The notes under the pieces: generated by a model
Database searches by the model: none
What the model was told of the DNA's origin: nothing
What the model saw: the letters and a program-made list of their open reading frames with translations, nothing else
Part shown: positions 6,990 to 61,610 of the stretch, one piece after another
Position numbering within the stretch: position 1 is the first letter of the stretch
How the letters are laid out: the number at the start of each line of letters is the position of its first letter
Source of the DNA: Vermamoeba vermiformis
Lineage: Eukaryota
Direction of reading: 5' to 3'
Assembly (NCBI GenBank): GCA_045837725.1
Contig: JBEWZL010000109.1
Span: 124,001-188,000, forward strand
Length of the DNA stretch: 64,000 nucleotides
Position numbers and translations under genes: made by a program

Positions 6990-7103
6990 ACAGCGTGTAA
7001 CTGTAATATAAAATTTTATTTTCGGCTTTTTGCTTCATTTTTCAGGGCAGTTTAAAGTAGAACAAGAACAAGACAAGCGAAGTGACTTTGTGTACTTATT
7101 CGT

Positions 7104-8687: not shown

Positions 8688-8967
8688 TACGATGTTAATG
8701 TATATAGCATTCCGGTTCAACTTGTAAATTAAATGAACGTACAAAAAGCGATTGTCTAAACAGATAGGGTCGGTTTGTAAAAGCGACAGACAAGTCTTAA
8801 ATTCATATGTGTTTGTTCTTTTGATAGCACGCCACTAGGCTATCATAGCAGTTACAGTGATTTTTGTTAGTCTGGGAAATCTCATTTGCGAGATTAAAAT
8901 TAAGCCGCTCGAAAAGGGGAGTTAGTAGTACTTGTTTAAACTTAGAGCCACCAGAGGACCCTTACAA

Positions 8968-11711: not shown

Positions 11712-11869
11712 CGGATTCAGTGGTCTGTTGCGAGATTGTGAGTAGTCTTATTTATTTGAGCTTCGAAAGAATATTGTAGAAATTATAAAATCATTTGTAT
11801 TGTACAATCATAAAATTCTAAAATTCCGTTTCTGTTTTGTGGAGGTGTTTGGAGCGCATTAGGCAATCA

Positions 11870-11877
11870 TCCCACAA
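11870..11877 (+). promoter_or_regulatory. DUSE-like upstream element TCCCACAA
   Basis: Matches the Dictyostelium WCCCAYAA element and starts 65 nt before the structured RNA; the same 8-mer also occurs elsewhere in the window. Confidence 0.5.
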
Positions 11878-11934
11878 CTTTATTTGGTCGCTCAATACGC
11901 AGCTGCGAAAGCAAGGGCTGCACAATTTCTTGTT

Positions 11935-12052
11935 GACCGCGGTAGCTCAATAATAGAGCACTCGTCTGCCCCTTCGGGGGTCACATCAAGAAGATGAAGG
12001 TTTGTCCGGGTTGTATCGCGAGTGGATGCGAGCGTAATTCTCGCCTGCGGTC
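11935..12052 (+). ncRNA. tRNA-like RNA: cloverleaf, GCC at the anticodon position, ~45-nt anticodon-loop insert, non-canonical D and T loops
   Basis: Acceptor G-ACCGCGG/CTGCGGT-C; D arm GCTC-AATAATA-GAGC; anticodon stem CTCGT/GCGAG; variable loop TGGAT; T arm GCGAG-CGTAATT-CTCGC; followed by a T-run. Confidence 0.8.
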
Positions 12053-12066
12053 TTTCTTTTTTTTTT
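12053..12066 (+). terminator. Pol III-type oligo-T terminator
   Basis: TTTC followed by a long T-run directly after the tRNA-like 3' end. Confidence 0.65.
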
Positions 12067-12096
12067 GAGCTACTGTACATTTATTTTTGGTGTTAT

Positions 12097-14025
<1,929 letters not shown>

Positions 14026-24600: not shown

Positions 24601-26212
24601 ACTGGCGACGCGAGTTCACCGGTGTCCATCCGTTGTATTAAACGCAGTACACAGCCCAACAAATAATCGCTTTTCTTCACGGCATTGCTACAAAATAATG
24701 TCGTTAGCTATTCTCTCGCATAATACAAAGCTTTTAACGATGCTCACTCGAAATTGCGCAGATCTAATGCTTTGTAGCCCTCGACTGGATGTTGCAGTGG
24801 AGTTTCACCGCCGAAATTGACGCGGCATCGCTCAGAACCACCAATAGACAACGCGGGGAAATACGCGAGTCCTACAAAGGATAATTGACCGGGTTAATAA
24901 GATCCAAATTAAACGTCACGTTGTCAAGAAGAAAATATTATTGTGCAACACCTAAATAGAGATATTTTCACTATGCAATTATAGATCACCAATTTACAAA
25001 CTGAAATTTAAATCTTGTACAAAACTCAAACGGCAGATTCCGTTAAAATTTCGCCTAACAGGCGCACAAATGAGAAAGCACGTGGCATCATTAACTAAAA
25101 ATTAACATAACTAGGTAAATATAGCTGTGACGTACCAGGCTGATGAGTTCTGATGTTCGCGAATGCAACGCCCAATGACTTGCCGTTCCTGTAGTACGTG
25201 ATAGTGCCCTGATCAGCGTCAATGCAACAGCCAATCACATCGCCTAGAGCACATCCAACACGGTTAGTCCAACACGACCACGCTAGGGGTATTGTCTACG
25301 CACCAATCTTCCACTTCTCGCCGTAGTCCCACTCGCGCATGTTCCACTTCTTGATACGTTTGCCATCAAATGCGTAGGAATCGGCTGAGTCACCGACGCC
25401 GTTCTGTGAATACAGTGCGTGTCAGCTTCAAAATGACACGTGTCAACGGCTACTTTGCAACATACCGTGTCAGTGAAGGCGCATTGGGGCGTCGCCCAAC
25501 CCAGCTGTGAAATTCCACTGGTGAGCAGCGTGATTTCGTACTGCCACTGACCCTGGTAGATGCAAACATTGGCGCGAATAGACGCAAAGTTTGACACGCT
25601 TTCAACCTATAATACCGTGAGTGAGGTGCGAGTGCTGTCACTGATCGTACCTGCAAGTGATCGTCGCTGAGCACGAGCAGACCAAAGCTGTGATCGAGAT
25701 CTAATTGCGCGACAGATGGCCCCAAGCGACCAATCACGTGATTGGCGTTGATAACTGAGCCCTGGTTGATCACTGTTGACTCGCTCTTGATTTCTTTGTC
25801 GGAAATTTGACGCGTGTCACTCGTAGTGTCGTACTGTGCAATGCGATGCTGTAGCACGGCACTCAATTGCTTGAATGTGATTGGTCTGTGGCTAGATCAG
25901 TCACGTGCCTCGATTGAATCACGCGCCCAACAAAGGACTTACCCAGGAAATGACAGGTCAAATACATCGCGCAAGACCGCATCAATGTCCTCACTCGGAT
26001 CTGTATCTACTAAATATGCTAGTCCTTGTAGACTTCTCTTTCTTGCTGAATCCTACAACGGAGAAAATGAGCAAAAAACAATTTTGAAAATATTCGTCAT
26101 TTTTTTTATTATTTACGAACTTGTTATATTTAGCCTCCTTATAATACCGATTTACCATTAAAATTATTGTTTCAATTTTAAAAATACTTACAGTTAAGTT
26201 AGACTTGTCCAT
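21636..26212 (-). CDS. RNF123: SPRY + RING E3 ubiquitin ligase RNF123/KPC1/RKP-like
   Basis: SPRY (NFASIRAN...GQWQYE...QLGWAT...YFPALS); RLGG motif; RING CPICY...FSPCQHRSCYRCISLHLLNKKQCFFCN. Confidence 0.92.
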
Positions 26213-26364
26213 TATTACGATCGCATTCTATGTTAATTCGTTTGTTTACCACCGGCAGTTTATTGAAATAGCTGCTCGATGTCTATTATAAAGAATTGAG
26301 TGCTATCAGTGGTGTATAATAACAATTATTGCGACAAGTGAAATCATTCTATCCCAAACAGAAG

Positions 26365-27693
26365 ATGAGCGAACAAACGAGCAGTAATAATAACAATCAG
26401 ACAAATAATAGCAGTAATGTGAATGTCAAGCTATTAGAAGACTATTACGCGAGTCAAAATACTGTAACTCCATACATGAAAGGTTTGGATTTGATAAAAA
26501 AAAGCTTCCTCGCATTAATTAATCCACAATTATTTAGAAAAATATGAAAAAGATGCCAATAAATTCTGGGACACATTCTACAAGCATAACACAACGAGAT
26601 TTTTTAAAGATCGCCATTGGATCGTCAGAGAATTTGAGGATCTGAAAGAAGGAACCGTAAGTACACATCTAGTTATCATCAAGGATTAACGGCCATCAGA
26701 AAACGATACTCGATTGTGGTTGCGGGGTAAGTAGACGAAGAACGGGCGGGATCTCACCAATCGAAATCACTCCGTACAAGTCATAAACCCGGTGTTTGTT
26801 GTATAGGTCGGCAATACTACATTTCCCCTGCTAGAAGAGAATGATAAGCTGTTTATACACGCCATTGACTTCAGTCAGCGTGCGATTAAGTTGTTTAAGG
26901 TATTTCCGGAATCCGTTCTGATTTGGGGGACATTCCCAACTGAATCAACACTAATCTCCGCCCGCAGGACAACCCACAATACAGCGAGACTAAATGCATC
27001 GCTTCAGTGTGCGATATTGTAAATGATTCACTGCCCCAACACGTCCCTGAGAACGGCATTGATGTTGCCATGCTGATCTTTGTCCTGTCAGCAATTGCCC
27101 CGGAGAAAATGACCACAGTCATGCTCAAGATTAAACAGGTATAGCATGATACGATATGATACGCTACAATCAATAGAAGGCGAGTGACAGCTCATTTTGA
27201 TTAAATTCTTCCGAGCCGAATCAATCGCTCACAAAACTTGCGCGCCTGTCAGATTACTTAACGATATTAGAGGTTAAACTAACATTGTTTAACAGGTCCT
27301 AAAGCCTGGAGGTGTTATTTACTTCCGTGACTATGCTGTCGGAGATGAAGCGCAAAGTAGATTCGCTAAGAAAGATCAAATGAAAAAAATAGCTGAAAAC
27401 TTTTATGTGCGCAATGACGGCACGAGATCATATTTCTTCACACGAGGTAATGTCTCGCTTAGAGATTCTAACGCAATTTGCGGCTTCTCCGTTCTTATTT
27501 TGGCAGAAGAACTAAAAATTTATACCCGACAGAATTTATGCAACAACTGGCGCAATCAACGGGCCTCGAATTGATAGTGAATGATTACGTGAATAAGCAA
27601 GTGGAGAATCGGAAGCAAGAGAAAGTAATGGACCGGATTTGGTTACAAGCAACATTCAGAAAACCGCTCGAAGTACCCGCCGAGCAAAAGTAA
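26365..27693 (+). CDS. METTL6: tRNA m3C methyltransferase, METTL6/METTL2/Trm140 family
   Basis: FWDTFY...FFKDRHW...[41 protein letters not shown]. Confidence 0.9.
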
Positions 27694-28236
27694 ATAAACA
27701 CCTTTTAATCCACCACGACAAGGGCCAGATCCGCTAAGGGAGGCTAAAGAAAACTCAAATCCACTTTTGTCTTCTTTTAAATCACAATTTCACGTGCTTC
27801 AGCGTGAAAATTTCGCATGAAATTCCTCCAGCGAGGTTTCCATATTTGAAAATCACATGGCATTGTGTGAACTTTCACGTGGGCGTTGTGTGAGCTGTTT
27901 TTGGACACACAAACCAAACTGACGGCATAAAAAGTTTAATTTTGATTGGCCGTCACAACTAATCAAACAGCTTGGGTAGTTAAAGGTATGAATCATATTT
28001 ATGCAACGCTATTTAGGACTTCGCTCCGACCATTTTAAAATTGAATTTCTCTCCTTTCCACTTTCAAATTAATTTTATTGCTTCAACTTTCTTTCAGTTT
28101 CACTTTTGTAATATTTAGTTTCATTTTTTATTACGATCACATCGTATTGACTCGCTACGAGTGTTAAATACCACATTATAATTTTTGATAGTCATTAATT
28201 TTCTTCTCGAGCTTAGTCAAGTGCAGTCCAGTTAAA

Positions 28237-29928
28237 ATGTCCATAGTGCAGCAACCTCCATCCCCAGTATCTAAGAAGGTTCGTAAGACCAAAAGTGAGG
28301 CTAGTCTAAATGTTGTTGGATCAAAGCCTCTCTCCGCCTCTGTCGAGATTCAGCGCACGCCAAAGCAAAGACTTATCTGGAACAAGCCACTGCACGCCAA
28401 ATTCAAAATAGCAGTGAAGAAGCTCGGTCCTAAGGGTAAGGGGCTTTCTACTTCAAACTAGATTTGCAACTTTTTTTTGATCTACGGAGCCATCATTCAA
28501 ACTTACCTATCTTACTCATATTATGATCCTTATCGAAACGTTTCTCTCGTCAACGTTATTCTTGTTTATATTAACAAACCCTTCAATAATTTTAGCTGTT
28601 CCCAAGCTAATCTTGAACGAAATGGGCGTGTGCGGACTCACTCGCGAACATGTCGCTAGCCACTTGCAGGTACGGTCACGTCTTTTATATTTTCCTTTTC
28701 ACCAATCAATCGGGTTATTTTTGTTGATCGTAAAGATCGACGGCGGAGTGCATTCACTAAAATGATAAAAAGGGGTTTCTATCCCACAAATCTAATCAAA
28801 TTTTCAAACGCACCCTCAAAAATGATGTTAAAACATGCATAATTCCATCCAAGTTCTGCGCAATTAGTTTTCGCTTTTAACGAAGCAGATTTCCGGCTCG
28901 GATTGAATTTCACGGGTTGAGGAAACTGCTCAAAATTGTTATTTTGTTAAATCAATCCACAATGAAATTGAAACGATTAAATGTTTACAACGGCTATAAT
29001 TGCGCAACGCTCATATTTATGTCAAATGATGATAAGATGACATCCGCGCGTTATTTTGGTCTGGATCTGACATTTGCTTGTTTTTACAGAAATATCGTCT
29101 CAAAAAGAAGAAAAAGGCTCAAGCTCGTGGCGAGACAGTTTCCCCTAACGATTCACCTCGTAATATGAAGTATTCTACCTCCGACAGTTCAGATAGCGAC
29201 TTGGAGGACGGGATGGAGTCGAACCAAGACTTCTTTGATATGGAAATGGATGAAAGCGCCAGTGTTAGCGATGGCACTAGCAACTGCAGCGATGTTATGG
29301 GCTCAGATTCCTCAACTGTTGTCGGATCAAACAACGGTTACTTCGTTGCCTTGATCCCCACTGTTGTCAATCCTTCTAACGAACAAAATGGAGCCCCCAG
29401 TCTGTCATATCATCACAACGTAGCCATTCCTCGCCTCAACCTTAACTTTGGCAACTATTTTCACGAAGTTGAATCCGCTCCCAGCACATTCAACGGCACT
29501 CGTTCAGCTGATGCTTCAACACACGCCGGTCATTACAGTCTGCCCACGACTCCTCACGGTCAGAACTCGCATCACGTGCAGTTAGCTGCTTCGTTGCCCA
29601 CTTACACTGTCTTCCAACACCACGGCGGCAATGTCTCGCTGCCCATGACCCCCCACGAACAACCCACTCGTAAGTCTCCTTCGTGTCATGTCTTATCATG
29701 TTTGTGCAAGTCAATTAACGTACTTCATTCTCAGCGCACACTCGCGATGTACAAATGGACCCATTGCCCTTCGAGTTGGAATTCCAACAGCAAAACCACG
29801 TCATTACCCAACAACCTCCTGCGTATTTCCCGCATGATGGCTTGGGTTTTGCACAATTTGAACAAGAGATTCCATTCACTTCAGACATCGACATCACCAG
29901 CCAGTTCTTGGCCCACGACACCGCTTAA
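28237..29928 (+). CDS. GARP/G2-like Myb (SHLQKY class) transcription factor without receiver domain; 4 exons
   Basis: RLIWNKPLHAKFKIAVKKLG / AVPKLILNEMGVCGLTREHVASHLQ / KYRL; last intron ~29670-29734; stop at 29926-29928. Confidence 0.9.
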
Positions 29929-39827: not shown

Positions 39828-42800
39828 TTACAGCAAAGAAGCAGCAAGCTCTTTGATTTTGATTTTGTATTGCTCTCCGATGTTCAGCGAGGCGACGCTG
39901 TTGTTCAGCGCAGTCAAAGCATTCTTGCACGAAGCAACGAGCAGTGTCTTGAGTTCAGGGTCGTGCGCAGCGATGACTAAGGCGTGCAACACAGAGATCA
40001 ACTGCTGCGCGGAGTCATCGTCAGTGACAGTCATGGCAGTCAATTTGTTGGCCAGATGGGCGCTGATGTTCTGTCTGTCATCGGGGGACAAGCGAGGCAC
40101 CAACTGTTGCGAGATTAATATACAACACTAAGAACAATATTAATCAAAGCTACGTACCACTGGGAAGATTTGTTGCGCGAATTTCAACGTGTCAGCGACG
40201 CTCAAGTGCTCCGTGTGTTTGGACAAGAGCTGCGAGACGAAGGTGATCAGCGCGGCATCTTGGAGCAGTGCTTGGCGCAGTTCGTGCTCTTCAGGTAGCT
40301 CCAAGAAGCGCGCGAGTGTGCTGACGACCGTGGCACAGGCAGCGGGTGGGAGGGACAAGGACTCAATGGCCGAGTACAGCACGAGAGCAGTGGTCTGTGT
40401 GGCAATGGCCTCGTCTGCGTCTTCAACCACCAAGTTGGCGAGCTGTTGCACGAACTCCAAGTAGTGCAGCTGCGAGGCAGGAGCTTGTTCTTCAGTCTCC
40501 ATCTTGTCGTTCACATCGACTTGCGACAACAAGTGCTGTTGACGCAGCCCAGTGATCACCAGCTCCAAGCATCCATCGTCAATGTGCGCCAGAGTGAGCA
40601 GCAGTTGACGGCACACGCGCACAAAGTTGTCCTGATTGGCGTGCTCTTTCATCACCGTCACCACAAACTCGATCAAATTGCCCTTGTTGTTCCAGCTGTT
40701 CGAGAGCTCTGTTTGCACCTTGGCAATGCGCTCTTCGTCCACTTCAGCCTCCTCGAATGCAGCACCAATCTTCTGGAAGACATCGAGCACGGTGATCAAC
40801 AGCGGGGAGAGTGCGTTGTGCTCGTCGACCCAAGTGTGGTGCAGCACAATCTTGGTGAAGTGTTGCAACATCTTCTTCTCGAGCAGAATGAACTTGTCGT
40901 CGAACGGCGACTCCAAAATGAACGTGAGCACACGCAGCAAGTGCTTGAGTGCGTGACTGACGGACTTGTCCAGCGAGGTGAACACTTGCTTCAGGGTCGA
41001 TTGGCGCATACGTGGCAGTTCATTGTAGCCGCGCGTGAGGATGCGGAACAAGACGTCTGCAGTGCGCGGGTACTCGGCTGATTCGAGGTACAAGAAGCGC
41101 ACAGTCCAGTCCCAGTTGTGCGCACCCAACATGCGCTCCAAGAAGGTGACATCAGCGGCAGCACATCGATCCACAATGCCGTAGTAGTGCGGCAGTGACT
41201 CGTCGTTGAAGCTGTAGAAAGCAGGACAGGCGCGCAGGGAGATGAAGTAGCTGAAGAAGCGCGTGTAGACCTTGTCGTCTTGCATGATCAGCTTGAGACC
41301 TTCGTCGTTGCCTTCGAGGGCCTTGTTCCAGTACTGCACCAGCGCGAGCTTGTTGAGATCGCACTCCATATTCACATCGATGGCGCTGAACAGCTTGAAG
41401 AAGGTGTCAAAGTGCGCGTTGAACAGCTGTTTCTCGCGCGGTGAAGTGAGACCCCACTGCAAGAAGCGGAACATGCTCAACAGACGCCAGTAACCGCTCG
41501 GATAGCCCTCGTCAGCGGTGCGTGTGAACTGCGCAGTGTCACCCGTGGCATTGAGTCGTGCGAGCGGGAACAGACTGAGCACTGCAGTGTAGATCTTGAC
41601 GAAGCGTGCATCGACGACGAGCGGATCTGCTTCGAGACCCACAAACACGACTGGTGTGACCTCCTCAGCGGGCTGATCAGCGAGCACGTCGTCCTTGGGC
41701 AGGTGCGTGTTGTAGCCAGGCAGTTCAGGCACCATCCACAACAGCATCGTCTCGGTGACTAGACGCAGCTCTTCGTAGGTCTTGTAGAACAGCAGGTCTT
41801 CAATCCACAGCTCAATCGTGTCCAGCATGAAGCGACGCAGCACGGGCAGGGCGGGCATCAGCTCGAGAATGAGACGCACGGCGTGATATGTGGCGTTCTT
41901 GTACTTGAGATTGTTCTTGATCACTTCGAGGTACCTGCGAATGCCGTGCTCCACGCGCGTGGCGTGCAGCGAGTCTTGCATGCGCAACAGCTGGGCGTAG
42001 ACAATAAAGTAGGGCTTGAACTGCTCGTAGTTGACCTTGTTGATGCCACTGTTGAGCAGATCCAGCACGCGAATGGAGAGTGCTTCGTTCTCGTAGCACA
42101 AGTGACAGATGAGCTCACTCGCTGCAGTCGGGTGAATGCCATCGCCAATCACGCGCTCCAAGAAGATGTCGGAGCTGATCAGTGCCCAGTCCTCGACACT
42201 CATCACCAGTGCTGGGCCCGGCAGTTGACTCGGTGTCGCGCTGTCACTGCTCGCTGCCTGATAGCTCTCGCTGTCCTCACTCGGTGCTCGCGGCACACAA
42301 CCGCGCACCAGTGCTGCAATCGTGCCCACGGTGTGCTTCATGTTGCTGAGCTGTTGCTTCTCGGTCTTGCTCTTCTTGTTGGGCTTGGCTTTCTTGTTGA
42401 GTCGCGGTGCATCGTCTTGCAGGTAGTAGTCCGCGAGCACAGTGAGGGCCTTGTGCTTCAACAGGAACTGCCGCTCTGGGGCACCAAGCGCTGCGAACTC
42501 TTCGAACACCAAGAAGTACTGATTGAAGTAGCGCCAGTGATTGTTGGCCTCTTTCAGCAGTGCCATCACGTGCTCCATGAATCGCACAATCACGGAGCTC
42601 GAATCACCGCGCGACTTCTCAAAGGCCAGGGGCACTATCTCGTCGTCACTGCGGCGCTCAATCTCCATGGCCTCGCTCTGCATGGTCACATCTTCCACTT
42701 CCACATCGTACAGTGCGCGCTCGTGTGCAGCGAGGCCTGACAGAGCCAGGGCCAGCAGCTTGACGTACTTCTCGCGCGCTTCAGGCACGGGGCTGTGGAA

Positions 42801-45800
42801 CAACATCTGCTTCAACCACGCGCAGTCATTGGCCAGCGAGGCCTCCAACAGCCAGCGACAGCCAGGCACGTGGTGTTGATACAGCTGCGACAAGAGCTCC
42901 ACAATCTCGTTCAAGTTGTCGCGCTCCTTGGCGTGGGCCAGTGTCTCAATGAAGAAGCGCGTGCCCAGCTCCAGCGAGGCAAACACAGGGTCAAACACGC
43001 GCGGCTGTGGCTGCTTGTAGTCCTGCACCATGTAGTCGAGACTGTGCGCGTAGTCGTTGTTGTGTGCCGTGGGCTTGTAGAGTGCCAGCACGCGCTGCAC
43101 AAAGTTGGTGTAGGAGGGATCGAAGATGTGCTTGTCGTGCAAGAAGCGAATGTTCTCTTCCCACACTTGACGGAACAGCTCCGATTGGCCTGTGACTGCA
43201 CTGCTCGTGGACTCGGTGCGCGGTTCAGTGCCGAGTGGATTGGGCTCGACTTTGCTGTAGAACAACATGTATGCGTTGTTGGGACGCATTTGATTGCGCG
43301 TCACTCGCTTGCCCTGCGCCGAGTCCCAGCTCTGCACCGACTCGTAGCCACCGAAGCACTGCGCGGGAATGTCAGCGGGGTCAAATGGCTCGACCAGCAC
43401 GTCGTTGAACTGGTACCAGCGTCCAGCAGCACCGCGCTCCTTGATGAACGAGTAGTAGTGGCCACTCTCTGCCGTGCCCGTGTGCACCAAGATGCCGCTC
43501 AGCTCGTACTCGTAGTAGGACAGCGGGTGCAGTGCCTCCACGGTCTTGCCAGCTTGTTGTTGTTCGCGGCGGTGCAGGCCCTCTTTGGTGTACGGCTCCA
43601 GACTGAGACGCATCGGGAACTCGCAGTGATCGTTCACTTTGGTGCGACGCATGCTCTCAAAGTCAAATTCGAAGCGCTTCAAGTGAATGATGAGGTTGTT
43701 GGGCAGGCCCTTGAGACAGCAGCGCTTGAGGGCATCGACCTTCTTGCCGCAGGTGCTGCACATGTACTTGTTGTCGCCTTCCAGCACGTCACCTTGCACG
43801 AACAGCTCCAGCGAGTCCTCGAGCTTCTTCTTGCCCTTCACTTCCACGCTGAACGAGAAGAAGCCCTCCTCGCGCTCAGAGGTGTGCTCGCACTCCTTGC
43901 TGATGATCTGATTCAGCATGGTGCCACCAAAGAAGTTCTTCAGAATGTGATCTTGCGGTGTGCCCTTGAGCAGCGTCTCCACCTTGTCGAACAGCATGTT
44001 GAAGAACTCATCGGCGTCCATCTGCACGGCGGGATTCATGGGCTGACCGTCGTACTTGTAGGCCTTGCAGAACTCTTTGGGATCGTAGAACTTCTTCTCG
44101 CTCTCCTGCAAGTAGGTGAAGATGGCTTGGAACTGATGCAGCAGACTCTCGCGCTTGTCTTCTTGACGGTCGGGCGCGGTGAGAATGCCACGACGGAACT
44201 CGGGGATCATGAAGAACTGCTGCATGAGCGAGTTCATGTAGCAGGTGGCACCCAAGTTCTTGAGGCCCACGTAGCCCACAGAGCCCTTCTCGTAGCCACT
44301 CGGCAAGTAGCTCCACTGACGGCGCGGCTCAGCGAGATTGTGCTGCACGATCAGACGATAGACGAGCTGCTTCATGTTGTCGGGATGATTGCGCGCCAAT
44401 TCTTCGAGCAGTTTGAAGGCACCACCGCGACTGGCGAGGGACTTGCAGCGCGGGGGAGTGATGGCTTGCTTGGCGTGATTGGGCTCGGGTATCTCGAACA
44501 GACACTGATAGAACACTTGCGACACGAGATCTCCACCACCCTGCGCAGTGGACAGACCTGCGAGTGTCTTGAACTCGCTGTCCTTGCTGATCAGCGTGGT
44601 GACGAGCTGCATCAGACCAATCAGCACTTGATCTTCCACTTCAGGCTGCGCTGTCGTCTCCACAATTGGATGGCGATGAATCATCTCGGTGCACGTGACG
44701 AGCAGCGATTTGAACTGGCGCGGCGAGGCACCCCCGACGCCTGAACACGCGTCTTGCAGCAAGCGATTGACGAGCTCAAAGTACTGTGCACAGGTGCGCA
44801 TGGTGGGACTGATGCCCGGCAAGTACTGCAGCAGCTGTTGCAGCAACACCGTGGTGGGCAGGGGTGTGCCCTCACGCACGGATTTGCAGATCTGATACAG
44901 GCCCTCCACGGCCTTCTCGCGCACGAGATCGTACTCGGATGTGAGCACGAGCGATGAGAGCCAGTTGGCAAAGTGCGCGTGTGTGAGCAGTGCTTGCAGC
45001 GAGGCAGTGCTGCTGAGGGTGGCTGCAACGAGCAGGGGCATGGCGTGCTTGACCACTTGCTCGGGCTCACTCTCCGTGCGCTCCAACAGCGTGCTCAGGA
45101 CATTGCTGCCGTCCTCGCTCACTGCTGCTGGCGCCGCTGTGTCCGTGCGCGCGTCGTTGGGCAGCTGGGCGACGGTCCACGTGATGTGCATCAACTTGCT
45201 GAGCAGCTCGAGCACATTCTGACCACTGCGCGCCAAGACCTCGTTGAACTGCGGCACATCGAGCTGATTGCGCGTGAGCACAAAGGCGCTGACAATCTTC
45301 AACAGCAGCACCAGACAGGCCAATCGCTTGCTGCCCTTGCTCTCCTCCAAGAACTCGCTCGTGCTCAGCACTTGAATCAGATGCGACACGCCACCACGCA
45401 GCACAAACTGTTGTCGCCACGACTCTTCACCTTCAGGTTGCAGCAGGGACTCCACGATCTGCAGCGCGTACAGCAGTTTGAACAGCGAGCGCGGATCCAA
45501 CAGCTCGTTCCAGTTCGGATGCATCGGATCTGTGTCGTGCGGAGTGCGCAATCGTTGCAGCGAGTCGAGCATGGTGGGGTTGGTGCGCAGCTTCATCAAG
45601 AGGTCCCACACGAGCTGACCAATGCTGCCAGGCAAGATGAGCAAGTCGAACAGCTGCGCAAAGTAGCGCTCTTGTGCCAGCTGGCGCGAGGGCAACATCT
45701 CGTCGTCTTCTTTCTCGCTCGGTGCACTCACTGCTGGACGTGCGTGCGCCTCCACACTGCCATCAGCCGCACGCCGCATGTACCGCGTCACGTGCACGAC

Positions 45801-48800
45801 TTGATTCTCGGTGAGTCGCAGATCTGAGAGCGTGTCGTTGTCGTTCTTCAATTCTTTGCCCGTGGTGAGCAGCCGCAACACCTCTGCGGACTCGTTGATG
45901 TGCTCAGCAATCTTCTGACGCAGCTGGCCGACTGTGTCTGCAGTGGTGAGCACCACGCTGAACTTGCTGCCGTTGAGCACCACAATGTTCAGCGTCACCG
46001 TCATGCCACTCGACTTGGCACCGTGACGACCGCGCGATGACGAGCCCTCAAAGGCCTCAATCAGCGACTTCAACAGCGTCAAGCAGCGCACAATGCGCAG
46101 TGACAGTGCAGCATCGGGCTTGACGGCGTACTCTTTGGCCGCACTCGACAGATACGCCATGCACTGGGCGATGAATTCTTCGCGCAGCTTGACCAGCTGG
46201 GGCTTCAAATCAGGTGCGAGCTGTGACAGCGGTGAGTGCGCGCTCGCGGGTGCAGCAGGGGGTGGTACTTACAGCCTTGTACAGTCGCGTCATCAATTGC
46301 ACGGCAGACTTGCCAACCTCGGCGTGGCGACACTCGAGCACGATGCGCCACAAGAGTGCCAGTCCGTCGAGATTGAACGACAGCACTGCGAATTCTTTGT
46401 CACGTGATTCGTACACCACAATCTTCTTGCGATTGGCATTCACGATGCGGAACAAGAACTCGAACGAATTGAGTCCTTGCACGGTGAGCGCTGCAAAATC
46501 GAGCTCCGCAAACTTGTGATCGAAGATGTACTCGATCGACTCGTCCGTCAGCGAGGCGTATTCTTTGTTGTTGGTGGTCGAGCGCGAGGTCTCAATCCAC
46601 TGCAGACCCAAGTCACGCTCCTCCACGGTGAGGCCCTGCACGACAATGGACTGCCACAGCGTGTCGAGCTGTTGCGGCGTGAGACTCAAATCTGAATTGC
46701 CCAGCGTGAAGTCCAGGAATTCAAAGCGCTCGCGAATGTGCTGCAAATGTTGCCACTTGCCAATGAACATCGTGTTGATGTCCACCACGTGACCTGCAGG
46801 CAACTTGGCGAGCTCCTGCTTGACGTGTTGGTGATAGGTGTGCAGATTGGCGAAGAAGGTGTCGAACAGATGGTATTCTTTCTCTGCCGCGGTGATCACT
46901 GCGCCAATGCCCTCACGCTCCTCGCGACGATTGTACGAGCCTGCACATCAGAGAGGTTAGAACTGCGGGCACATAGCGCTGCCTCAGACGCGTACCGAAT
47001 ATGCGCGCCAACAATCGCAACGACTGCGGCACAGACTTGCCCTCCTTGAGATTGGTGAGACAGAGCATAATGTAGTGATTGCTGTGCAGGTCTGTCAGTC
47101 ACACGTGTATGCAGCGAGGTGTGCGCGAGGACACTACGTACCGATGGGGTAGCACTGGGGTCATGGCGAACAGCTCCATCAAGGTGTTGAGGGCACTCAT
47201 GAACAGCTCGTGCGGCACATTGGTCTCGTCGAGAATCAAGTTCCACAGTGCCTCCAAGCCATAGTAGCGCTTCTCGTGGTGTTGTTGCGCCACACCGAGG
47301 CCGTGAATGGTGACATCGCGCACCAGACTCAGCGTGTTGGCGCTGTACTCGTGATAGGGGATCAGTTTGATGCGCTCAAACAAGTAGTCGAGCTGCTCCA
47401 CGGTGAGGTAGCTGGCGAGTGCCTTGATGCTGCCCCACACCGTGTGACTGATGGTCTCGTGCTTGGCGGACGAGGCTTGCCACAGCAGATCAATGTGACG
47501 CTGTTCGAGCTGTCCCTGCACGGCCAAGAACTTGAGCAGATCACTCGCGCGCTTGATCAGTTCGAGGTGCATATTCGCACCATACAAGTACTCTACCACT
47601 TGCTTCTCTTTGAACCAGCGAATTAAATAGTCAATGTCAATGCCTGGATCTGAGTCCATCATCATGCGTTCACCGTGACGCAACAACATATCGCGCTTGT
47701 TCAATACGCGCACTGTGACCTCGCGTATGTCGCTCAAGCCTGCAATGCGCTTTTCTAAGAAAGGTGACTTCAAGAACTTGAGCGCCATATCGAGTTTGAA
47801 TCGTTCCATGAGCTCTGTAGAGTCGTCCATGTGATGCAACAAATCTTCCATAATTGATATGATATCCGCCACTGTTTTACGATCTTCGTTCTTCAGTTCA
47901 TCATCGGTTACGTTCAACAAGTGATCCAAAACCAGATCGCGCAGTTCAGGCAAGTATTGTGAGTGAAGATACTGCGAGTCAAGATAATCCTTGATCTGTC
48001 GTAAACAAGATGCCTATTAGTCATATTCACAAAACAGGTAACACCACGCAGCTGACCTTGAGCACGAGTTTGAGCATGCAGCGCAGTACGGAGAGAGGCG
48101 TGCGCGGCTGTTTGTTCTTGATGCGCTCTAAGATCTGTTCGAGACCTCCGCGACGCACGAATAGCTCGACATTCGACACTAAATAGGCTGAGGCCCACTT
48201 GCTGTGCACCTACAAGCGTGCCAAGGTAAGTCAGATGGTTTGTCACGCCATTCAACACTACGCACCGTGACTTGAGGAGTATTCGGGTCCTCTTCGTATT
48301 CGAGAGTGAACTCTTCTTTGGACTGCGAGTCGTCTTTGCCGTAGTGATCGTAAAATATGTACACTGAACTGTGCGAGTAGATGCGCGCCATTGTCTCCCA
48401 AGCTGAGATCATATCATAGTCGGCATAATCCAGCAAAAATAAGAGCGATTTTTGCATGAATTGGTTGAATCTAGATGCCACATCGACACTAACGTCTCTG
48501 AAAATAAAGAAATTTAAGAATATGTTTTCACCGCCAAGAAAATTGATTTTGTTGCTCATTTGCGTCAATTTGTGAGGCAAGCACTTACCCTCGCTTGAGA
48601 ATACCCGTTATAACTTTGATAAAGAAATTTTCAATATAAAGGTGCGCTCTGTCTGGTTTTGCTTCCTCTAATGCATCCAACCACTCTTCTATTACTCGTA
48701 ATGCATTCAAAGGATGCATATCTAAATATTAAGGATGAGTTAGCATGCAATTCTGAATCAGGAGGTTGGGTTATTTTTTTCGTTTCCACAAAATAAACGA

Positions 48801-53670: not shown

Positions 53671-56189
53671 TTACAACCAACCGAAGATGAGTCTCTTACG
53701 CTCATCCGCAGTCAACAGCTCGACAGGCAGTGCATTGAGCGCGTGACACAGATTCATCGACAGCTCGTAGTGGCGCAGATCCAGCAGCACACGACGCGCA
53801 TTGTGCATGGTCTGCACGGCACCTTCAGAGGGGTGTGTCTTGCAGTAGGACCACAACACGCCGTAGTTCGGGGCCGCACAACTCGCGGCGTGTTCAATGC
53901 GACTCAGATCTGCTGCAGGGCCCTGAGTGAGCAGCTCCACGCGCAGCCACTCCACGAACGAGTCACCGTACTGCGGTGTGAATTCAATCGCGCGCTCAAA
54001 GAAGAGGCGTGCAGTCGCTGTGTCGCGTGCCATCAGCGCCAATCGACCGCCCTCGCACCACACCTCGCCTGCTTTGGGCACCTCGTGCACGGCTTGCTTG
54101 AACACGCGCCAGGCACGCGCGAATTGTTGCGAGGTAAGCAGTTCTAATTGAATGTACAGTGCCCACAGTCTGCCCGTGCACGGATGTGCGTGCAAGCTCG
54201 ATTTGACCAGCTGCAGCGCGGTGTCGTAGCGCTTGGCACGCACGTCAATCAATACACGCTCCAAGTAGAGCTTCCACTCGTAGCTGAGCTCCTTCTTGGC
54301 CTTGTCGACAATGTAGCGCGCACGATCGCTGTTGCCAATGTACTCCTCCAAGTGCGCGCACTCGAGATAGACCACACTGCGCATCTTCTCGGGCACTTGT
54401 TGCACCGCTTTGATGAGCAATCTAATGGCGCAGGTGAGTACAGCGAACTCCGCACTCGATGGACACGTACCTCCGTGCAATGGCGATGTTGCCAGCGGTG
54501 AGTTCAAAGCGCGCACCTTGCACCCAGACACGCCACACCAAGTTCTTGGGACAGTTCAGCGCTGCTTTGACGTAGTTGGTGCGCGCAGATGTGAGCTGAT
54601 TGAACTTCTCGTCGATCAGTGCCAGCTCCAGGTACAACTTCCACCACAGTTCGCGCGACAAGTGCTGCAGTGCGGTGTTGAGCAGTGTGGGCAACAGGGA
54701 CAGCAAGGCACCGTCTTGTTCGATCAGTGACAGCGCAGTGAAGTACAGCGGAGAATAGGAGGGCGCGTGTTGCAGACCAGCGGTCAGCCACGACAGCACA
54801 GCACTCACACTCGGCTGTACGGCACGTGATTCGAGTCTCAGACCTTCAACATAGAGGGCTCCTGACCACGGCACAATGCGCGTCAGATGTGTGATCACGT
54901 GACGTGCAATATCGACACGACCAGCACGCAGTTCTGCGCAACGAGGTGAGTGATGTGCACACCATACTGACCATAGCAGCACTTACCAAACAGAGCTCCC
55001 TCAAGCATCACGCGCCAATGCTGCGACAGATCCACGTGACGCAGTGCACTGAGGGTGTGACGCACGAGTGACACGTGACCGCACTTCTCTTCCACGCGCA
55101 GTGCTTTGACGATCAGAGCCTCGCTCTCAGCAGTGAGGGCACAGTGTTCCATGCCGCGCAGCAGCACACTCTCTGCGTGCATCAGCTCGCCGTTCTCCTC
55201 CTCCATCTTGGCCCATTCCAGCCACGCCTTGACTTCACTCGGCTGCAGCGCCACAACTTGTTCAAAACAGCGTCTGGCGTGCGTAAAGTGCGACTCTTTC
55301 TGTTGGCTCGGTGATTAGGACACTATCTGCTAGCAACTTATACAACGATAAGACACTTACGCGCGACAGTTCAGCGAGCTCCAAGAACATCTTCCATTGC
55401 ATGCGCGGCGGAGATTGAGCAATGTACTGCTGAGCGAAGCGAATAGCAGCGCGATAACCTTTAGACTTCTCTGCGAGCTTCAATTCCGCGCAAAATTCTT
55501 CAACGGAATGAGTCTCGGTGTAGATCTCCTCGCGCATTGCTGGCTGCTCAAAATGTTGCTGCTGTTGATAATAGGGGACGTAGTTAGGCTGCTGATACTG
55601 CGGTACGTAATACTGCATGGGCATTGGTACATCTACATAATTGACAGGAATCATCATGGGTGCGTAATTGCGCGACATGTGCAGCGGATCGAATGACAGA
55701 TCCAGCGTGTCTGTCGATGAATTCGATGGACTCGTTGAGTAGAAGCTCGATGTTGATGAGTAAGATGTTGCATATATCTCCGCTAGACTTGATCCTGAAG
55801 AAGAGGAATTCGGAGAAATGGAAAGTGGCGACAGATGCTCTTCATCTGAGCGAGAGTAAATGCTACTATTGTCGCAATTACGACAGTAAGTTATATGCAC
55901 GTTATGTATTGCAATATTACTAACCTCCTTGTGGTAGTGTCCTTGGTAGGGGAGAATAATTTGTCCACAACATTCAACACCACACGCTCTAGATCTAACT
56001 CCTCGCGCTGTAACTAAGTGTTAGTGGTATGGGGCTTATATAAATATATATTATAGGACTCACTTCATCTTCAAACAATTCGTCATCTGACAACGAATTG
56101 TCACTGAGCAGAAATGGATGCCACGAAGAGTTATTGAAGTGCGAGTAGTTGGAGGGATATTGGTGGGACCACTGACCTGTTGCCAACAT
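53671..56189 (-). CDS. TPR/HAT-repeat protein, function unknown (possibly RNA processing)
   Basis: AWLEWAKMEEENG, WKLYLELA, TGRLWALYIQL, VPKAGEVWCEGGR, FTPQYGDSFVE, PNYGVLW. Confidence 0.75.
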
Positions 56190-56338
56190 GTTGATACGAA
56201 ACAATTAAATATACAACGAGCAGAGCAAGTTTTTTTGTTTGTTTGCAACGGCTAGTAGATTTAAATTTCGAACGAGTAATTTGCGCGGGCTTTTGAAATG
56301 CGAATTCTTGGTGGAATTATTATGTACACTTTTATTAA

Positions 56339-57334
56339 CTACTGCGCAGCAGCTTCACCATCGTCATTGCGAATGGAGTCTTCTTCTTTTTCCAGTTGAC
56401 TCGTCTCATCTGTTTTGTCTTCGCCGTGCGTTGGTTCTGATCTGAAGGTCCTTGGTTCAACGCGCGATAATGCGGCAGCAAGTTGTTCGTCTTGCTGCTT
56501 CTTGCTCTCTTCTAGCAGCTTGTTGATCTTTTCGTCGCGCTTGACCGGCAAGTAGTAGATTTGGGGAGCGGCTTTTGTAGCAATAAATCCGCTAGTTAGC
56601 TGGTGGTAGGCTTTCAGCGTAGATTGCTGCGAGACAGATTAACAGAAGTCACAAATTACAGCCGCGGGTTGAGTGTAGTCATGATCAAATACGTACCAGT
56701 AGCGCGACTTCTTTGTCTTTCAATTCACTCTCGATCTGTTCTTTGTGGCTCTGCGCTTCTCGCTTCTGTTCCTCTATTTGTTTTAAATACGTTTCTTTGA
56801 GTTGCTCTTGATCTTCTTTCACTTTAGTCTCCACCTTCTGCTCTAATTGCTTTCGTCGCTGAATGACATCTGACTTCTCTTGTTGCGACAGACTGTCTTT
56901 GGCGCCTTTTAAAGTGCCCATTAATATAGAGAACATCTTCTTGTTGCGCATTTGTATGTCCGCTGGTGCTTTGGGGAGCTCGCGGCGCGGCTCAGACGTT
57001 GAATCCTCCTAGAATATTATTTTAATACCCAATTATTTCTATAATTATAGCAGCTGTATTGTACAATCGCTGCATCACTTACCTTGTTCACTGCGCTATC
57101 GGCAGTACGTGCGCGTTTGGCTTCTGGTTCGTCTTCTTTCTCTTCATTTTTTTCACGTTTTCTGCAAGCAATAATTAGTATAAATTACTGCTTTTATTAT
57201 GCTATTTTTTAGTACCGTTTATTGTTTGATCCAACTGTGATCCGCTCTTTGGCAGCAAGATCGCGCAGCTTTTTGTTTGTTTCAATACGCTTTTGCTCTA
57301 ATAGTTGAACTTCCTTCCATAACGTAGTGTCCAT
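56339..57334 (-). CDS. PNN: Pinin/SDK/memA domain protein
   Basis: RNKKMFSILMGTL, coiled coil, FIATKAAPQIYYLP. Confidence 0.88.
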
Positions 57335-57766
57335 TGTGCTTAATTGAGCTCTTGTTCAAGCGATAACGCGTGTTTGTTAGAGCGCCGGAATTAAAGGTTG
57401 CTCAGAAGAAATTTCGCACAGGTTTTCCTGAGAGACTTGGTATTGTACTACCGATAGGAAATTTTACTATGACGTTGGCTAGTACATTCTTACAATGGTT
57501 TATTCATATATCCGTTCTTCCCCGGGGTCAGAGATCAAATAACCTGGCCAGCACAGTTAAAACTGAACCCATTTTCCGCCCATCAATCGATCGGCCTTTG
57601 AATGACGTCTCGCTGTCTTTGGATGCTACAACTTGAGAGCGGCACAAACTACCTCGATGGACATCTGTATGTTGGAAATCACTTGTCTATATGACATACA
57701 GCAAAATGTTACCCCATTTTTTTATCAGTTGAATCAAATTGCGACCCCCAGGCGCCTTGTCCATCA

Positions 57767-59503
57767 ACCAATAGGTGGACATCCCACCCGCCAATTTTTT
57801 TTCGTCCGTTGACTTTCGCTGTCCGCTGATGTTAGTAATTGACCAACTTACTCCTTACTTTGCCATTAGCACCGGCGGACCCAAGAAGTACTACTGCTGG
57901 CATCGGGAGGCTTTAGGCTGATTGCTGGAGGCTGAAAAGGGCAATGTTCTGCACAGAACTTAAGTATTAGAACTTTGTTCTATTTGCTGCAATACCATTT
58001 AAACTTTCCCAATACCAAGAACTATCACTACATAACACGAAAAGTAAGTAATCAAAATAAAAGATAATTGAGTGACAGCAATTTTCAGCATTAAGTATGG
58101 CAATGTTCAGCAAAGAACTTAAGTACTGGAACATTGTTCAAAGCTTCAATACTTGAAACTTTGCTGAACTATCACTGTAAATCATTATGTATGAACCCAT
58201 CCATCAGCACATACTGTGTACAACACAACTATCAATTTTATGCTTGATCTTTGGCAGCAACCCTGGACGGACGCAATGTCCACAGACGAAAAATTTTTGG
58301 CGGACAGGATGTCCACCATGATACTTAATGAGCAACAAAATTCAAGTGTTGAAGTTCATAGCATCTGTATCAAGCAACTAACATATACAACCAGGGTATG
58401 TTTGCTGGACAAAAAACAGTTATACATCCAACCCAAAAATAGTGAGCCATGCTTAAGCAATCCTCTCGTAGATATGTAGTTCTGCATAGAACTCTGGCAG
58501 AAATGGAATATTGTGAATGAGAAATATCTCATAACAAAAAAAAGTTAGACTCTTTCTATTGAACTCTGACATGTCCACTGGCGGACATGTGCTGATGGAT
58601 ATTCATACTTAATGATTTACAAAGCTGTCACTACATTATCTTTGACGATTACTCGTCTCTTCTATTACTATAAGTGCCCAATATCTCAACAATTGCCCCT
58701 AAAATTATTATATATCCACCTAGTACTTATACTGCTATGGTGTTGTTTAGCTTCGTAGCACTGATAGTGCGGTTCAATTTTTGGTTTGTTCGGTGAAAAA
58801 GTAACTGTTACAAACCCGAAGCTTTTTCCCGCTCGATCTGGCCCATTCCTGTGGCTTTGTCCTCACAACTCAACAATTTTGTTTGTTGAACTCTGAGAGG
58901 CAAACTGACACAACTGCTCGTGTCCAGTATGCTGGTGATATATATATGACATTCGCCAGGCCACTGGGACAACAGCCAAGTGAGTTTTTGGAGGTTTGGT
59001 GGGTGCGGCGAATCTAATCTGACCCACCAACCAACCATTTCTGGTGCACTGATGAGCACATATAATATTTAAATATATACACCTATTCGTAATTAAATAA
59101 TTGGTGCTTAAAATTTGCCGGCTGAAAATTTTTGTGGGCAAATCCACGCAGACGAAATAATTTTCGCTGCCCAAGTGAACGGACAAATTTAATTTTCAAA
59201 TTGTTGAGATATTGGGGCCGCCGAGATACGGGGCATTCGTAGTATATAGTGATAGTACTATGTATTTTTAGTTTAAATGGTTTTGCAGCGTTTAGAGCAA
59301 AGTTCTAGTACTTAAGTTCTTTGCAGACATTGCCGTTTTCAGCCTCCAGCACACGCCCAAAGCCTTCTGATACCACTATTGTCTGGGTCTGTGGTACTAA
59401 CGCACAGTTTGGAATAAGTTGGTCAATTACTAACATCAGTGGACACAGCCACCCCTGAGTCAAGAGGACGGTGAGAAGGGGGCGGGACACCGGTAGCTAT
59501 TGG
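57767..59503. repeat. Large imperfect inverted repeat (arms ~57767-58040 and ~59236-59503) with nested internal repeats
   Basis: ctgatgttagtaattgaccaactta and gctggaggctgaaaa.ggcaatgt...gaacttaagta.tagaactttg occur on opposite strands. Confidence 0.88.
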
Positions 59504-59859
59504 CTCCCTAAACGGTGCATTCATTAGCTTGCAGCAGATTTTAGTGTTGTATCTGACCAAACTCATGACCCGTCTAAACCAGACCTAGGTTTTTGACGGG
59601 ATGTCCTCCTTCGCTGCCAGGTCAGTTATTGAATTAGTCACTCCACACAAAAGGAATACTATGTACAAGATATGAATGGTGGTTGATCAAATGCAGTACC
59701 TGAGAAAATGGCCTGTAAGTTCTTGAACTGTAACAAGATGCCACCCACCAACACCACAACTTCTGTCAATTATGACCTCCAATGCTTGCATGAACTTTTT
59801 TATTGAAATCAGCTAGGATCTTTTGGCTGGAAAAGTGGCCCTTTACTATTTACAGATAT

Positions 59860-61452
59860 TTACATGGATTGTTCAGTGAGTTCTTGTGTTATACGTACAA
59901 TGTCGGTGTCATCTGTTATTTGCCACAGCTCTCCAAATATTTCAATGCCAGACAACACCAAGAAGTTGTGATTGCTACTATTATGCCCTGTTTGCAGTAT
60001 TCTAAACCAACGGAAAGGCCGCGCTACAGATACTGGGAATGACATGACTGCAAAGGGTCCGTTCAAACTGTCATCATTGTGATGCCGCTTGATCATGGTC
60101 CAGTTCTTGCCATCGTTGCTGCCTTGAAAGTCCCAATTCCTCAATGCATCTGCACGGTAATTGCCGCCGTGCCGCAGTGAATAAGCGCGGGGCAGCACTG
60201 CATAGCCCACGAGTTCCACACTGATCCACGATGCAGGCACGTCATTGGTCCACAGCTCCAGGTCTTGGGCTGCAGGGGCTCCAGTCGGTCCCCAGCCCCA
60301 GTCCACCATGCGCATGGGCTGTCCTCGTTCCGTTGATGACATGGCCACGCGCACGCGTCCAGTGAGTGCAGGATTGGTCCACGCGGTAAGTGGGGCACTG
60401 CTGAGGGGGCGAATTGGACCCAAGTCCGTGCCGAGCCAATACAGCACACCGCGACAGGGCTGCGTCCAATCGATCGGTGCCGTGCTCAGTGCACTCTGCG
60501 GCTGATATTCAAAGCTCACACCGCGCCACACACGCGGCTGCAAGTGTTGCAAGTCGTGCTCGCGCCGCACCTCTTCGCGCACAGCCAAGCGCGCCATGCA
60601 CGCCTCCAACAAGATCTGGCGCGGCACTTGCGCGTGATTGCAGGCCTGTTCGAGCTGCGCGTAACTGAACCAGCGAAATCGAACGGTGCGCATCATTTGT
60701 TCCACGAGCTCTGGATGTGCCTCTAGTTGTTCTTGGTTGTGGCTAATATAACGACAAACTAGCTGATATAGACTCCACTCATTACCAACGGATAGTCTCG
60801 GGTGTGTTAATAGGCGCAGCATTGTTTTGGGTGGCAACAAATTCAGATCTGCCAGTTCGTCGTTGAGTGGCGCTTTCTTGCTGATGTTGCTCGGTGTCAC
60901 ATTGGATTCACCACGCCACTGATAATCAATGCCCCACGTGTTCATATGTAAGAAATTGGAGGCTACGAAGTTGAGACATTTCTGTACAACGCGTTCCTGA
61001 TTGAAATTTACGGCATCCACTAGCAGCTAGCCGAATGATACCACATTAATTAGGTATATTAATGGCGATGTATGTATAGGTACCTTAACGACGGTTGAGC
61101 GCTTCAAATGCTTGTCGACAAATTCAGCGCATTTGGATGCGAGGTGATGAATCAAATAGTGATCTGCCTGTGTCAGCAGCGATATGACGCTGTCTAAAGT
61201 GACGGTCAACTTGCCCTGGTAGATGAACTGCAGCACTTGCGGGAACACATTGCTCGGATCGGGGAAGTTGAGTTTGACCACAGCCAAGCGCTTCTCTTTG
61301 AACTCGCTCGACAACAACAGCTTGAAGAACTCGCTGCTGTGCGCTAGTATCACGCGATGTGCGCGTATGTGTCCGTGCTCTGTCACGAGCGTCACATCTG
61401 ACAACTGACCTGACTTCAAGTAGTCCAAGAAGCCTTTCTTAAAGTGCGTCAT
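59860..61452 (-). CDS. BTB/POZ + BACK + F5/8 type C (discoidin-like) domain protein
   Basis: SDVTLV...AHRVILAHSSEFF...LQFIYQG; VRF; GVLYWLGT, WTNP, YSLRHG, LRNWDFQGSNDG..W, SGIEIFG. Confidence 0.88.
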
Positions 61453-61610
61453 CAGTCCTCAATAGTACTCAATAGTACTCAATGCAGTCCTCAATGCAGT
61501 GCGCTGTGTGCGTGTGCACTGAGCTGTGAAAAAATGAACTGCGTGCTCGCTGATTCTGAACTTAGCCGTGCGAGCCACGAACACAACACAGATCTTAGGC
61601 GAGTATCAGC

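Follow-up and report, generated by a model that had tools for sequence, protein, structure and literature searches.

In the window, by which we mean the whole 64-kb stretch of DNA that we analysed, a wide spacer between two genes holds a pair of long inverted arms around a non-coding centre, which raised the question whether the structure marks a place on the chromosome, as a centromere would, or is one copy of a repeat. Besides searching the window itself, we compared positions 54800-61600 at 80% likeness with four public runs: X1, which consists of DNA contigs with the same organism label and may be the source sample itself; X4, a water metagenome from a separate study; and X18 and X20, two sets of RNA reads labelled as the same species. 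Among the 21 public runs listed, 17 contained part of the stretch and two contained at least half of its sampled words, and no RNA run among those listed contained the stretch.

A wide non-coding spacer and its inverted arms

Long ORFs are few in the window, its exons are GC-rich and its non-coding DNA is AT-rich, which marks its source as an intron-rich eukaryote. Genes lie throughout it, and the two that flank the structure are both on the minus strand:

56339..57355, minus strand: pinin-like gene of small low-GC exons, its 5' end facing the element
59860..60945, minus strand: last exon of a BTB-BACK gene (BACK, E 2e-6), its stop codon at 59860 facing the element

The pinin-like gene was recognised by Pfam matches to Pinin_SDK_memA on exons 56339-56638 (E 3e-7) and 56685-57008 (E 7e-11), and its upstream exon, 57209-57355, has a methionine start near 57334. 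A relative of the BTB-BACK ORF, a protein of 512 aa with BTB+BACK, is 88% identical to it, and six of its seven organism-labelled matches, at 32-39% identity, are from Amoebozoa (Pelomyxa, Tieghemostelium, Acytostelium, Dictyostelium purpureum, a Physarum transcript and Planoprotostelium), the seventh being from a coral. RNA reads from X18 and X20 covered 56389-57523 as well as 59794-61382, their loose ends falling at exon borders, and were absent on 57524-59793; since these runs were only 80-95% like the window, with 0 of 129 reads in one and 0 of 307 in the other at least 99% like it, the absence is uninformative on expression. Measured from the pinin-like start codon at about 57334 (reads extend to about 57523) to the BTB stop codon at 59860, the spacer spans some 2.3-2.5 kb, and the element occupies its middle, with about 250 nt between it and the last RNA-covered pinin-like bin and about 350 nt left to the BTB stop codon.

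This gap had been described as the largest between genes in the window, and its size of about 2.5 kb was borne out; its rank is plausible rather than established. The low-GC stretch 25940-29440 (3.5 kb) may be a second gap of comparable size, given that none of the seven ORFs of at least 75 aa in it had a Pfam match and that a longer ORF at its edge likewise had none. Low GC itself was rejected as a marker of gene-free DNA, since the longest low-GC stretch of the window, the 5.6 kb at 6740-12300, has Cdc6_C, DBR1, SH3 and protein-kinase exons. For annotation this is a warning: pinin-like, Cdc6, DBR1, SH3 and kinase exons are all low in GC here.

The claim that no credible ORF lies between the arms was upheld, because none of the 13 stop-to-stop ORFs in the gap, the longest of 110 aa, matched Pfam at E<=0.01, and the only listing up to 0.1 was tRNA-synt_2b at E 0.1. 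The only Rfam match, to mir-322 (E 0.57, with 22.7 bits where the gathering score is 62), was set aside as noise; no tRNA was found in the region, and Tandem Repeats Finder reported no tandem array in 57700-59560.

The arms themselves were confirmed at the proposed 57820-58040 and 59236-59446 by a repeat search, blastn and gapped alignment. By blastn, 57820-58041 matched 59445-59236 at 77.9% over 222 nt (E 1.2e-41), and gapped local alignment paired the longer stretch 57787-58041 with 59486-59236, 197 of the 263 columns being identical. The repeat search resolved the pairing into four collinear inverted pairs of 81-96% complementarity:

57820-57863 with 59402-59445: inverted pair I2
57923-57947 with 59327-59351: inverted pair I7
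57948-58005 with 59270-59327: inverted pair I1
58011-58041 with 59236-59266: inverted pair I6

The arms are thus about 255 nt long, 75-78% alike and 1.19 kb apart, and the same searches and alignments show the terminal inverted repeats by which MITEs and other non-autonomous TIR elements are recognised. Folded as single-stranded DNA, 57768-59504 has a predicted energy of -355 kcal/mol and 197 pairs between the two arms, where 25 mononucleotide shuffles gave -178.6 +/- 6.9. Blast of the entire window against itself (64 kb, E<1e-6) returned two non-self matches only, the arm pair and a 68-nt direct duplicate adjoining it, so that the structure at 57768-59504 is the only one of its kind by this search, and blastn, word searches and self-blast found no further copy of the arms or of their end motif elsewhere in the window.

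Two further features of the sequence-only reading did not hold. The weaker similarity that had been traced out to about 57540 and 59630 is at chance level, for 57480-57790 aligned to the reverse complement of 59484-59760 scored 24 against 21.9 +/- 3.1 (maximum 37) for shuffles; and the core described as AT-rich, at an inter-arm GC of 0.387, is only slightly lower than the arms (0.435 and 0.442) and flanks (0.41-0.43) and falls inside the 0.37-0.44 span of the window's other low-GC stretches. What stands of the observation as a whole is therefore the arms and the lack of coding signal, with the status of largest gap plausible rather than established.

Within these limits, the element has the following parts:

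57768..58041, plus strand: left arm, from alignment to the right arm, X1 depth and end-module alignment, its outer boundary uncertain by about 20 nt
57774-57819: outer end module of the left arm, from end-module alignment
57820-57863: best-conserved block, just inward of the outer end module
58099..58162, plus strand: direct partial duplicate of 57940-58007, from repeat search and blastn
58254..58317, minus strand: internal inverted copy of the outer end module, matching 57774-57816 (I3, 79% over 43 nt)
58587..58643, minus strand: inverted copy of the inner-arm pieces 58060-58099 and 58176-58212 (I4, I8, I11)
58663..59243, no strand assigned: copy-specific segment of 581 nt, from its roughly single-copy depth and from X1 joints that skip it
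59236..59504, minus strand: right arm, from repeat search, blastn, alignments and X1 depth

From its ends at 57768/57774 and 59491/59504 the whole measures about 1.73 kb, or about 1.15 kb without the segment 58663-59243. The outer end module, of some 45-65 nt, starts with a 19-nt motif at 57774 that occurs in the window only there and at 58299, inside the internal copy; the outer end of the right arm, 59446-59504, is a degenerate version of this module, and a weaker end-like module was seen by repeat search and end-module alignment at about 59140-59190. Inward of the end module, the best-conserved block contains a run of 24-25 nt identical between both arms, from which a 23-nt word matches exactly in both. 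The inner left arm has a unit of about 159 nt that is partly duplicated, one extra time only: the duplicate at 58099-58162 is 88% like 57940-58007 over 41 nt in the repeat search (D1) and 80.9% like it over 68 nt by blastn (E 3.5e-10). The piece at 58587-58643, which is 89% like the inner-arm pieces over 37 nt and 80% over 40 nt, becomes the inward continuation of the right arm when 58663-59243 is set aside. This segment has an inverted repeat of its own, 58677-58694 with 59199-59216 (I9, 18 nt, 100%), which when extended is only marginally above chance (score 42, with shuffles reaching 41 at most), and its junction can be read, ambiguously, as a TA duplication.

Just outside the arms, at 57768 and 59504, lies a CCAATA-type heptamer common to both sides. 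At the candidate ends of this one flanked copy, 57768/57774 and 59491/59504, which are placed to within about 20 nt, we saw no target-site duplication; outside 57774 and 59491 the sequence is mutually inverted, as the CCAATA-type heptamer shows, not direct.

As a separate observation, the heptamer TGTCCRC occurs eight times in the element, in both orientations, at a density of 4.6 per kb where the window has 0.36 per kb, a count reached by 0 of 312 tiles of equal length, for a pattern that was noticed post hoc. These heptamers would fit subterminal protein-binding sites.

Other copies of the element

The comparison with the DNA contigs of X1 bore on whether the arms are unique. Summed word depth in consecutive bins was as follows:

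57751-57977: 28,769 (preceding bin: 522)
57978-58204: 13,626
58205-58431: 8,321
58432-58658: 4,145
58659-58885: 1,042
58886-59112: 686
59113-59339: 11,245
59340-59566: 13,665
59567-59793: 443

Against flanks of 443-522, the arms thus stand at 22-58 times the flank depth, in a measure that is not equal to copy number and to which other organisms may contribute, and the counts of distinct contigs weigh more. These counts point the same way: distinct X1 contigs with a letter unlike the window numbered 21 at 57851, 23 at 57855 and 29 at 57856, and the majority letters at these three positions are those found in the window's own right arm. In X4, the outer arm had a depth of 58.7 against about 3-12 on the flanks, with six variant contigs. 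Among the 453 X1 pieces, 46 fitted two places in the stretch and 355 were at least 90% like the window, the successive identity bands holding 93, 105, 157 and 98 pieces. Dozens of variants in one organism indicate a repeat family and not a unique chromosomal landmark.

The course of the depth and the joints within single contigs also informed us about the shape of other copies. Depth peaks at the outer arm and drops inward, from 28,769 to 4,145, as is expected where termini are kept and interiors vary; at position 58284, in the internal end-module copy, it was 17,134. Three X1 contigs join 58661-58663 straight to 59240-59244, and a fourth passes from 58654 to 59270 through 40 letters resembling 59236-59266. 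The direct joints between 58662 and 59244, taken with the roughly single-copy depth in between, indicate that 58663-59243 is specific to this copy. In four contigs the right arm leads from 59443-59455 into sequence like 58254-58288, from which we conclude that the right arm of other copies ends in a well-kept end module. Joints that go back, from 58123 to 57969/57970 and from 58212 to 57970, show that the units of about 159 nt are arranged differently in other copies, and seven contigs pass through 58232 toward the inner module with small differences only.

The DNA of the same organism thus contains many occurrences of the arms, of the end-like module inside and of part of the centre, and other copies share both the junction between centre and arm and the outer end module. 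The number of variants, and the loose ends that enter unlike sequence, suggest that the copies are dispersed, as far as contigs that carry no genomic positions can indicate.

What the element may be

We consider it quite likely that the region represents a single member of a non-coding repeat family that has many copies and is of the foldback or long-TIR type, most probably a decayed, non-autonomous DNA (class II) transposon. The family is multi-copy, its internal junctions are shared between copies, it has no coding capacity, and it lies here among genes; transposition as its mode of spread is something that we infer, as are its superfamily and the order of events behind the 0.58-kb segment. 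The family would have spread through cut-and-paste transposition; the gene of the transposase would lie elsewhere, and the enzyme would recognise the arms by their conserved outer 90 nt or so. The segment 58663-59243 would be either a later gain by this copy or a part kept by this copy alone. Insertion of the element would also be the reason why the spacer measures about 2.5 kb instead of about 0.6-0.8 kb, the size it would have without the element, which is in line with the short spacers described elsewhere in the window.

Several observations count against this reading. No target-site duplication was found, and the bases outside the ends are inverted; at 1.15-1.73 kb and with uneven depth, the element exceeds a textbook MITE in size and falls short of it in uniformity; and its arms are 75-78% alike, whereas 355 of the 453 pieces from X1 are at least 90% like the window. 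This low likeness of the arms means either that they are inherently imperfect or that family members make up a mosaic at this locus. Of the readings first offered, the old non-autonomous element is the one supported in outline: the multi-copy state, the lack of coding sequence and the inverted ends agree with it, although no target-site duplication was found and copies elsewhere look more alike than 'old' would imply.

The mosaic, in which two or more family members or fragments lie head to head or nested, so that the foldback is accidental although still transposon-derived, is the alternative that fares best, and we hold it to be unlikely. It would account for arms that differ more from each other than many pieces of other copies (90% or more) differ from the window, for the extra end-like module inside at 58254-58317 and the weaker one at about 59140-59190, and for depths that swing sharply along the arms, from 18,045 at 57856 to 1,942 at 59335. 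However, the junction of the centre with the right arm, from 58662 to 59244, is common to other copies, as three contigs show, and seven contigs run through 58232 toward the inner module; these shared paths indicate that the order of arm, centre and arm is a property of the family.

Returning to the transposon-like family, its likeness to one other sequence deserves mention. A metagenome scan with a 20-nt word of the conserved arm block matched one contig, L001, whose likeness to both arms is an exact stretch of 24 nt; as it goes no further, we rejected the contig as another family copy. These 24 nt lie at the tip of a 313-nt hairpin element, whose arms 2416-2522 and 2622-2728 are 90% complementary; Pfam gave no match for the six ORFs examined among the contig's 13 ORFs of at least 70 aa. 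By a rough estimate, a 20-mer match is about what chance would give in such a collection; what goes beyond chance is that four more bases match and that the match lies at the tip of a repeat, so that this single match of short sequence may serve as a lead only. Among viral contigs, the arm 20-mer and a degenerate 19-mer of the conserved block had no match, and seven matches of the end motif were dismissed as chance, with likeness ending at 19-21 nt; six of the seven lay at 62-66% GC. That the element belongs to an undescribed lineage of foldback-type transposons in free-living amoebae, sharing its arm block with the tip of the L001 hairpin and with hairpins that may be sources of small RNAs, strikes us as doubtful. 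If true, the link would point to a transposase-binding end shared across distant eukaryotes, or to horizontal transfer.

A co-opted foldback, giving small RNAs from a hairpin RNA or acting on the pinin-like promoter or the 3' end of the BTB gene, is improbable in our estimate. The strong predicted fold of the single strand and a location between a promoter and a 3' end would suit such a role, but no transcript evidence was found, a 22-25% mismatch between the arms makes a poor Dicer substrate, and the arms are, by self-blast, unrelated to any gene sequence in the window.

A regional centromere, whole or in part, built of a core between inverted repeats, had been the leading suggestion; we reject it and give it next to no weight. 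Its shape alone, two arms around some 1.2 kb with no ORF, matches, to which the absence of RNA reads on 57524-59793 adds nothing, as runs 80-95% like the window are uninformative. Arms expected once per chromosome are instead multi-copy by tens, with 22-58 times the flank depth and 21-29 variant contigs in X1 and six in X4. They are about 255 nt long and 75-78% alike rather than near-identical on the scale of kilobases; the structure of 1.7 kb ends 250-350 nt from expressed gene ends on either side; genes lie all around it in the window and its core is not markedly AT-rich; and 0.58 kb of the 1.19 kb between the arms is unique to this copy. The centromeres of Dictyostelium, the only amoebozoan type known to us, are clusters of DIRS-1 retroelements.

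An assembly artefact, namely a false inverted duplication, is hardly credible: none of the listed contigs spans the whole structure, but the arms differ at 22-25% of positions and by indels, whereas artefactual foldbacks are near-identical, unique contigs cross the left boundary (56647-57849 in X1, 57131-57795 in X4), single-copy contigs cross the edges of the copy-specific segment (58627-58816 and 58876-59244), and X4 contains both flanks up to the arms.

The result is mainly a correction, in that a centromere-like foldback in a wide spacer turns out to be a repeat copy that explains the width of the spacer. It also provides the outline of a repeat family for masking and classification, made up of an end module, a 24-nt block, units of about 159 nt and a variable centre. 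The family, probably undescribed, belongs to a known kind, and as a feature of a eukaryotic genome it is ordinary; a non-exhaustive literature search found no published foldback family in a non-dictyostelid amoebozoan.

Comparison with known systems

The centromeres of S. pombe, C. tropicalis and Komagataella consist of inverted repeats around a core, and regional centromeres of this type have near-identical arms of kilobase scale and a core of several kb. The element resembles them in its inverted arms flanking a non-coding centre, and differs in that its arms are hundreds of bases long, diverged and multi-copy, with genes a few hundred bases away. DIRS-like retroelements have inverted terminal repeats, an internal complementary region in which copies of both termini abut, and ORFs for reverse transcriptase, RNase H and recombinase. 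A deleted element of this type was rejected, because the inner module at 58254-58317 reproduces a single terminus and runs on into unrelated sequence, and because Pfam searches of the gap ORFs revealed no remnant of a reverse transcriptase or recombinase.

In the Foldback (FB) elements of Drosophila, the arms are arrays of short tandem subrepeats. Like these, our element has long self-folding inverted arms, is non-coding and varies between copies in its internal organisation; unlike them, it has no tandem subrepeats according to Tandem Repeats Finder, only the one partial duplication of about 159 nt.

MITEs are described as 100-600 bp long and uniform in length, with Submariner of Pandoravirus salinus and a relative in Acanthamoeba as examples of the type (PMC4495683). 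The element is MITE-like in being non-coding, gene-adjacent and present in tens of diverged copies with inverted ends, and departs from it in size, with 1.73 kb here and 1.15 kb in canonical form against 100-600 bp, and in the uneven depth along the element, which implies that lengths are not uniform. Neither a TA nor another target-site duplication was seen at its ends, which are placed to within about 20 nt.

In Dictyostelium discoideum, thug-S is described as a repetitive element containing multicopy miRNA loci (PMC6161686). Likened by description, both are non-coding, repetitive, amoebozoan and hairpin-forming, and by analogy with the thug-S miRNAs a small-RNA by-product of the present element is possible.

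Gene content and base composition of the window

Two reverse-strand genes of the window are listed here, the second being the left neighbour of the foldback element, with its 5' end facing it:

40140-47851, reverse strand: USP9X/UBP24-type deubiquitinase gene
56339-57355, reverse strand: pinin-like gene with small exons, GC 0.43-0.45, rich in lysine/glutamate

The deubiquitinase gene contains an unbroken ORF of 2006 codons that carries UCH, DUF3517 and ubiquitin domains, and an ARM-repeat exon lies upstream of it; an exon of this length is unusual given how intron-rich the window is. Reading by composition would call the pinin-like gene non-coding DNA. Exons encoding Cdc6_C, DBR1 C-terminal, SH3 and protein-kinase domains lie in 6504-12617, which is the longest of the window's low-GC stretches, so base composition does not reliably show where genes are absent here. 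Another low-GC region, of 3.5 kb (25940-29440), gave Pfam matches for none of its seven ORFs of at least 75 aa and no self-similarity at E<1e-6, and it may be an intergenic gap equal in size to the one studied here.

Divergence among the sequencing runs

Over 54800-61600, reads of the RNA runs X18 and X20 were only 80-95% like the window, and none of them (0/129 and 0/307, respectively) reached 99%. As both runs carry the same species label as the best-matching DNA run, we conclude that this label spans clearly diverged lineages. In the same interval, fixed differences at many exon positions were common to the two RNA runs and to contigs of the water metagenome X4.

The DNA contigs of X1, labelled as the same organism, include a second contig of 442 nt that is ~89% like the copy-specific segment of the element, over 58860-59245. 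Its depth was 126, compared with ~440 for the locus's own contig, and it could come from a paralogous locus or from another strain or haplotype.

Short motifs within the element

A 24-nt run has the same letters in both arms of the element (57827-57850 and 59415-59438), and the identical 24 nt form the inverted-repeat tip of a 313-nt hairpin element on the metagenome contig L001 (2416-2730), which is otherwise unrelated to the window. This common run may represent a transposon end that has been conserved, or it may have arisen by chance. L001 additionally carries a further palindrome (2073-2365) and tandem repeats (1164-1614 and 3894-4195).

The heptamer TGTCCRC, picked post hoc once the sequence had been seen, occurs eight times in both orientations within 57774-59504, that is, 4.6 per kb versus 0.36 per kb in the window, a count reached by none of 312 equal-length tiles. 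These copies may be subterminal binding sites.
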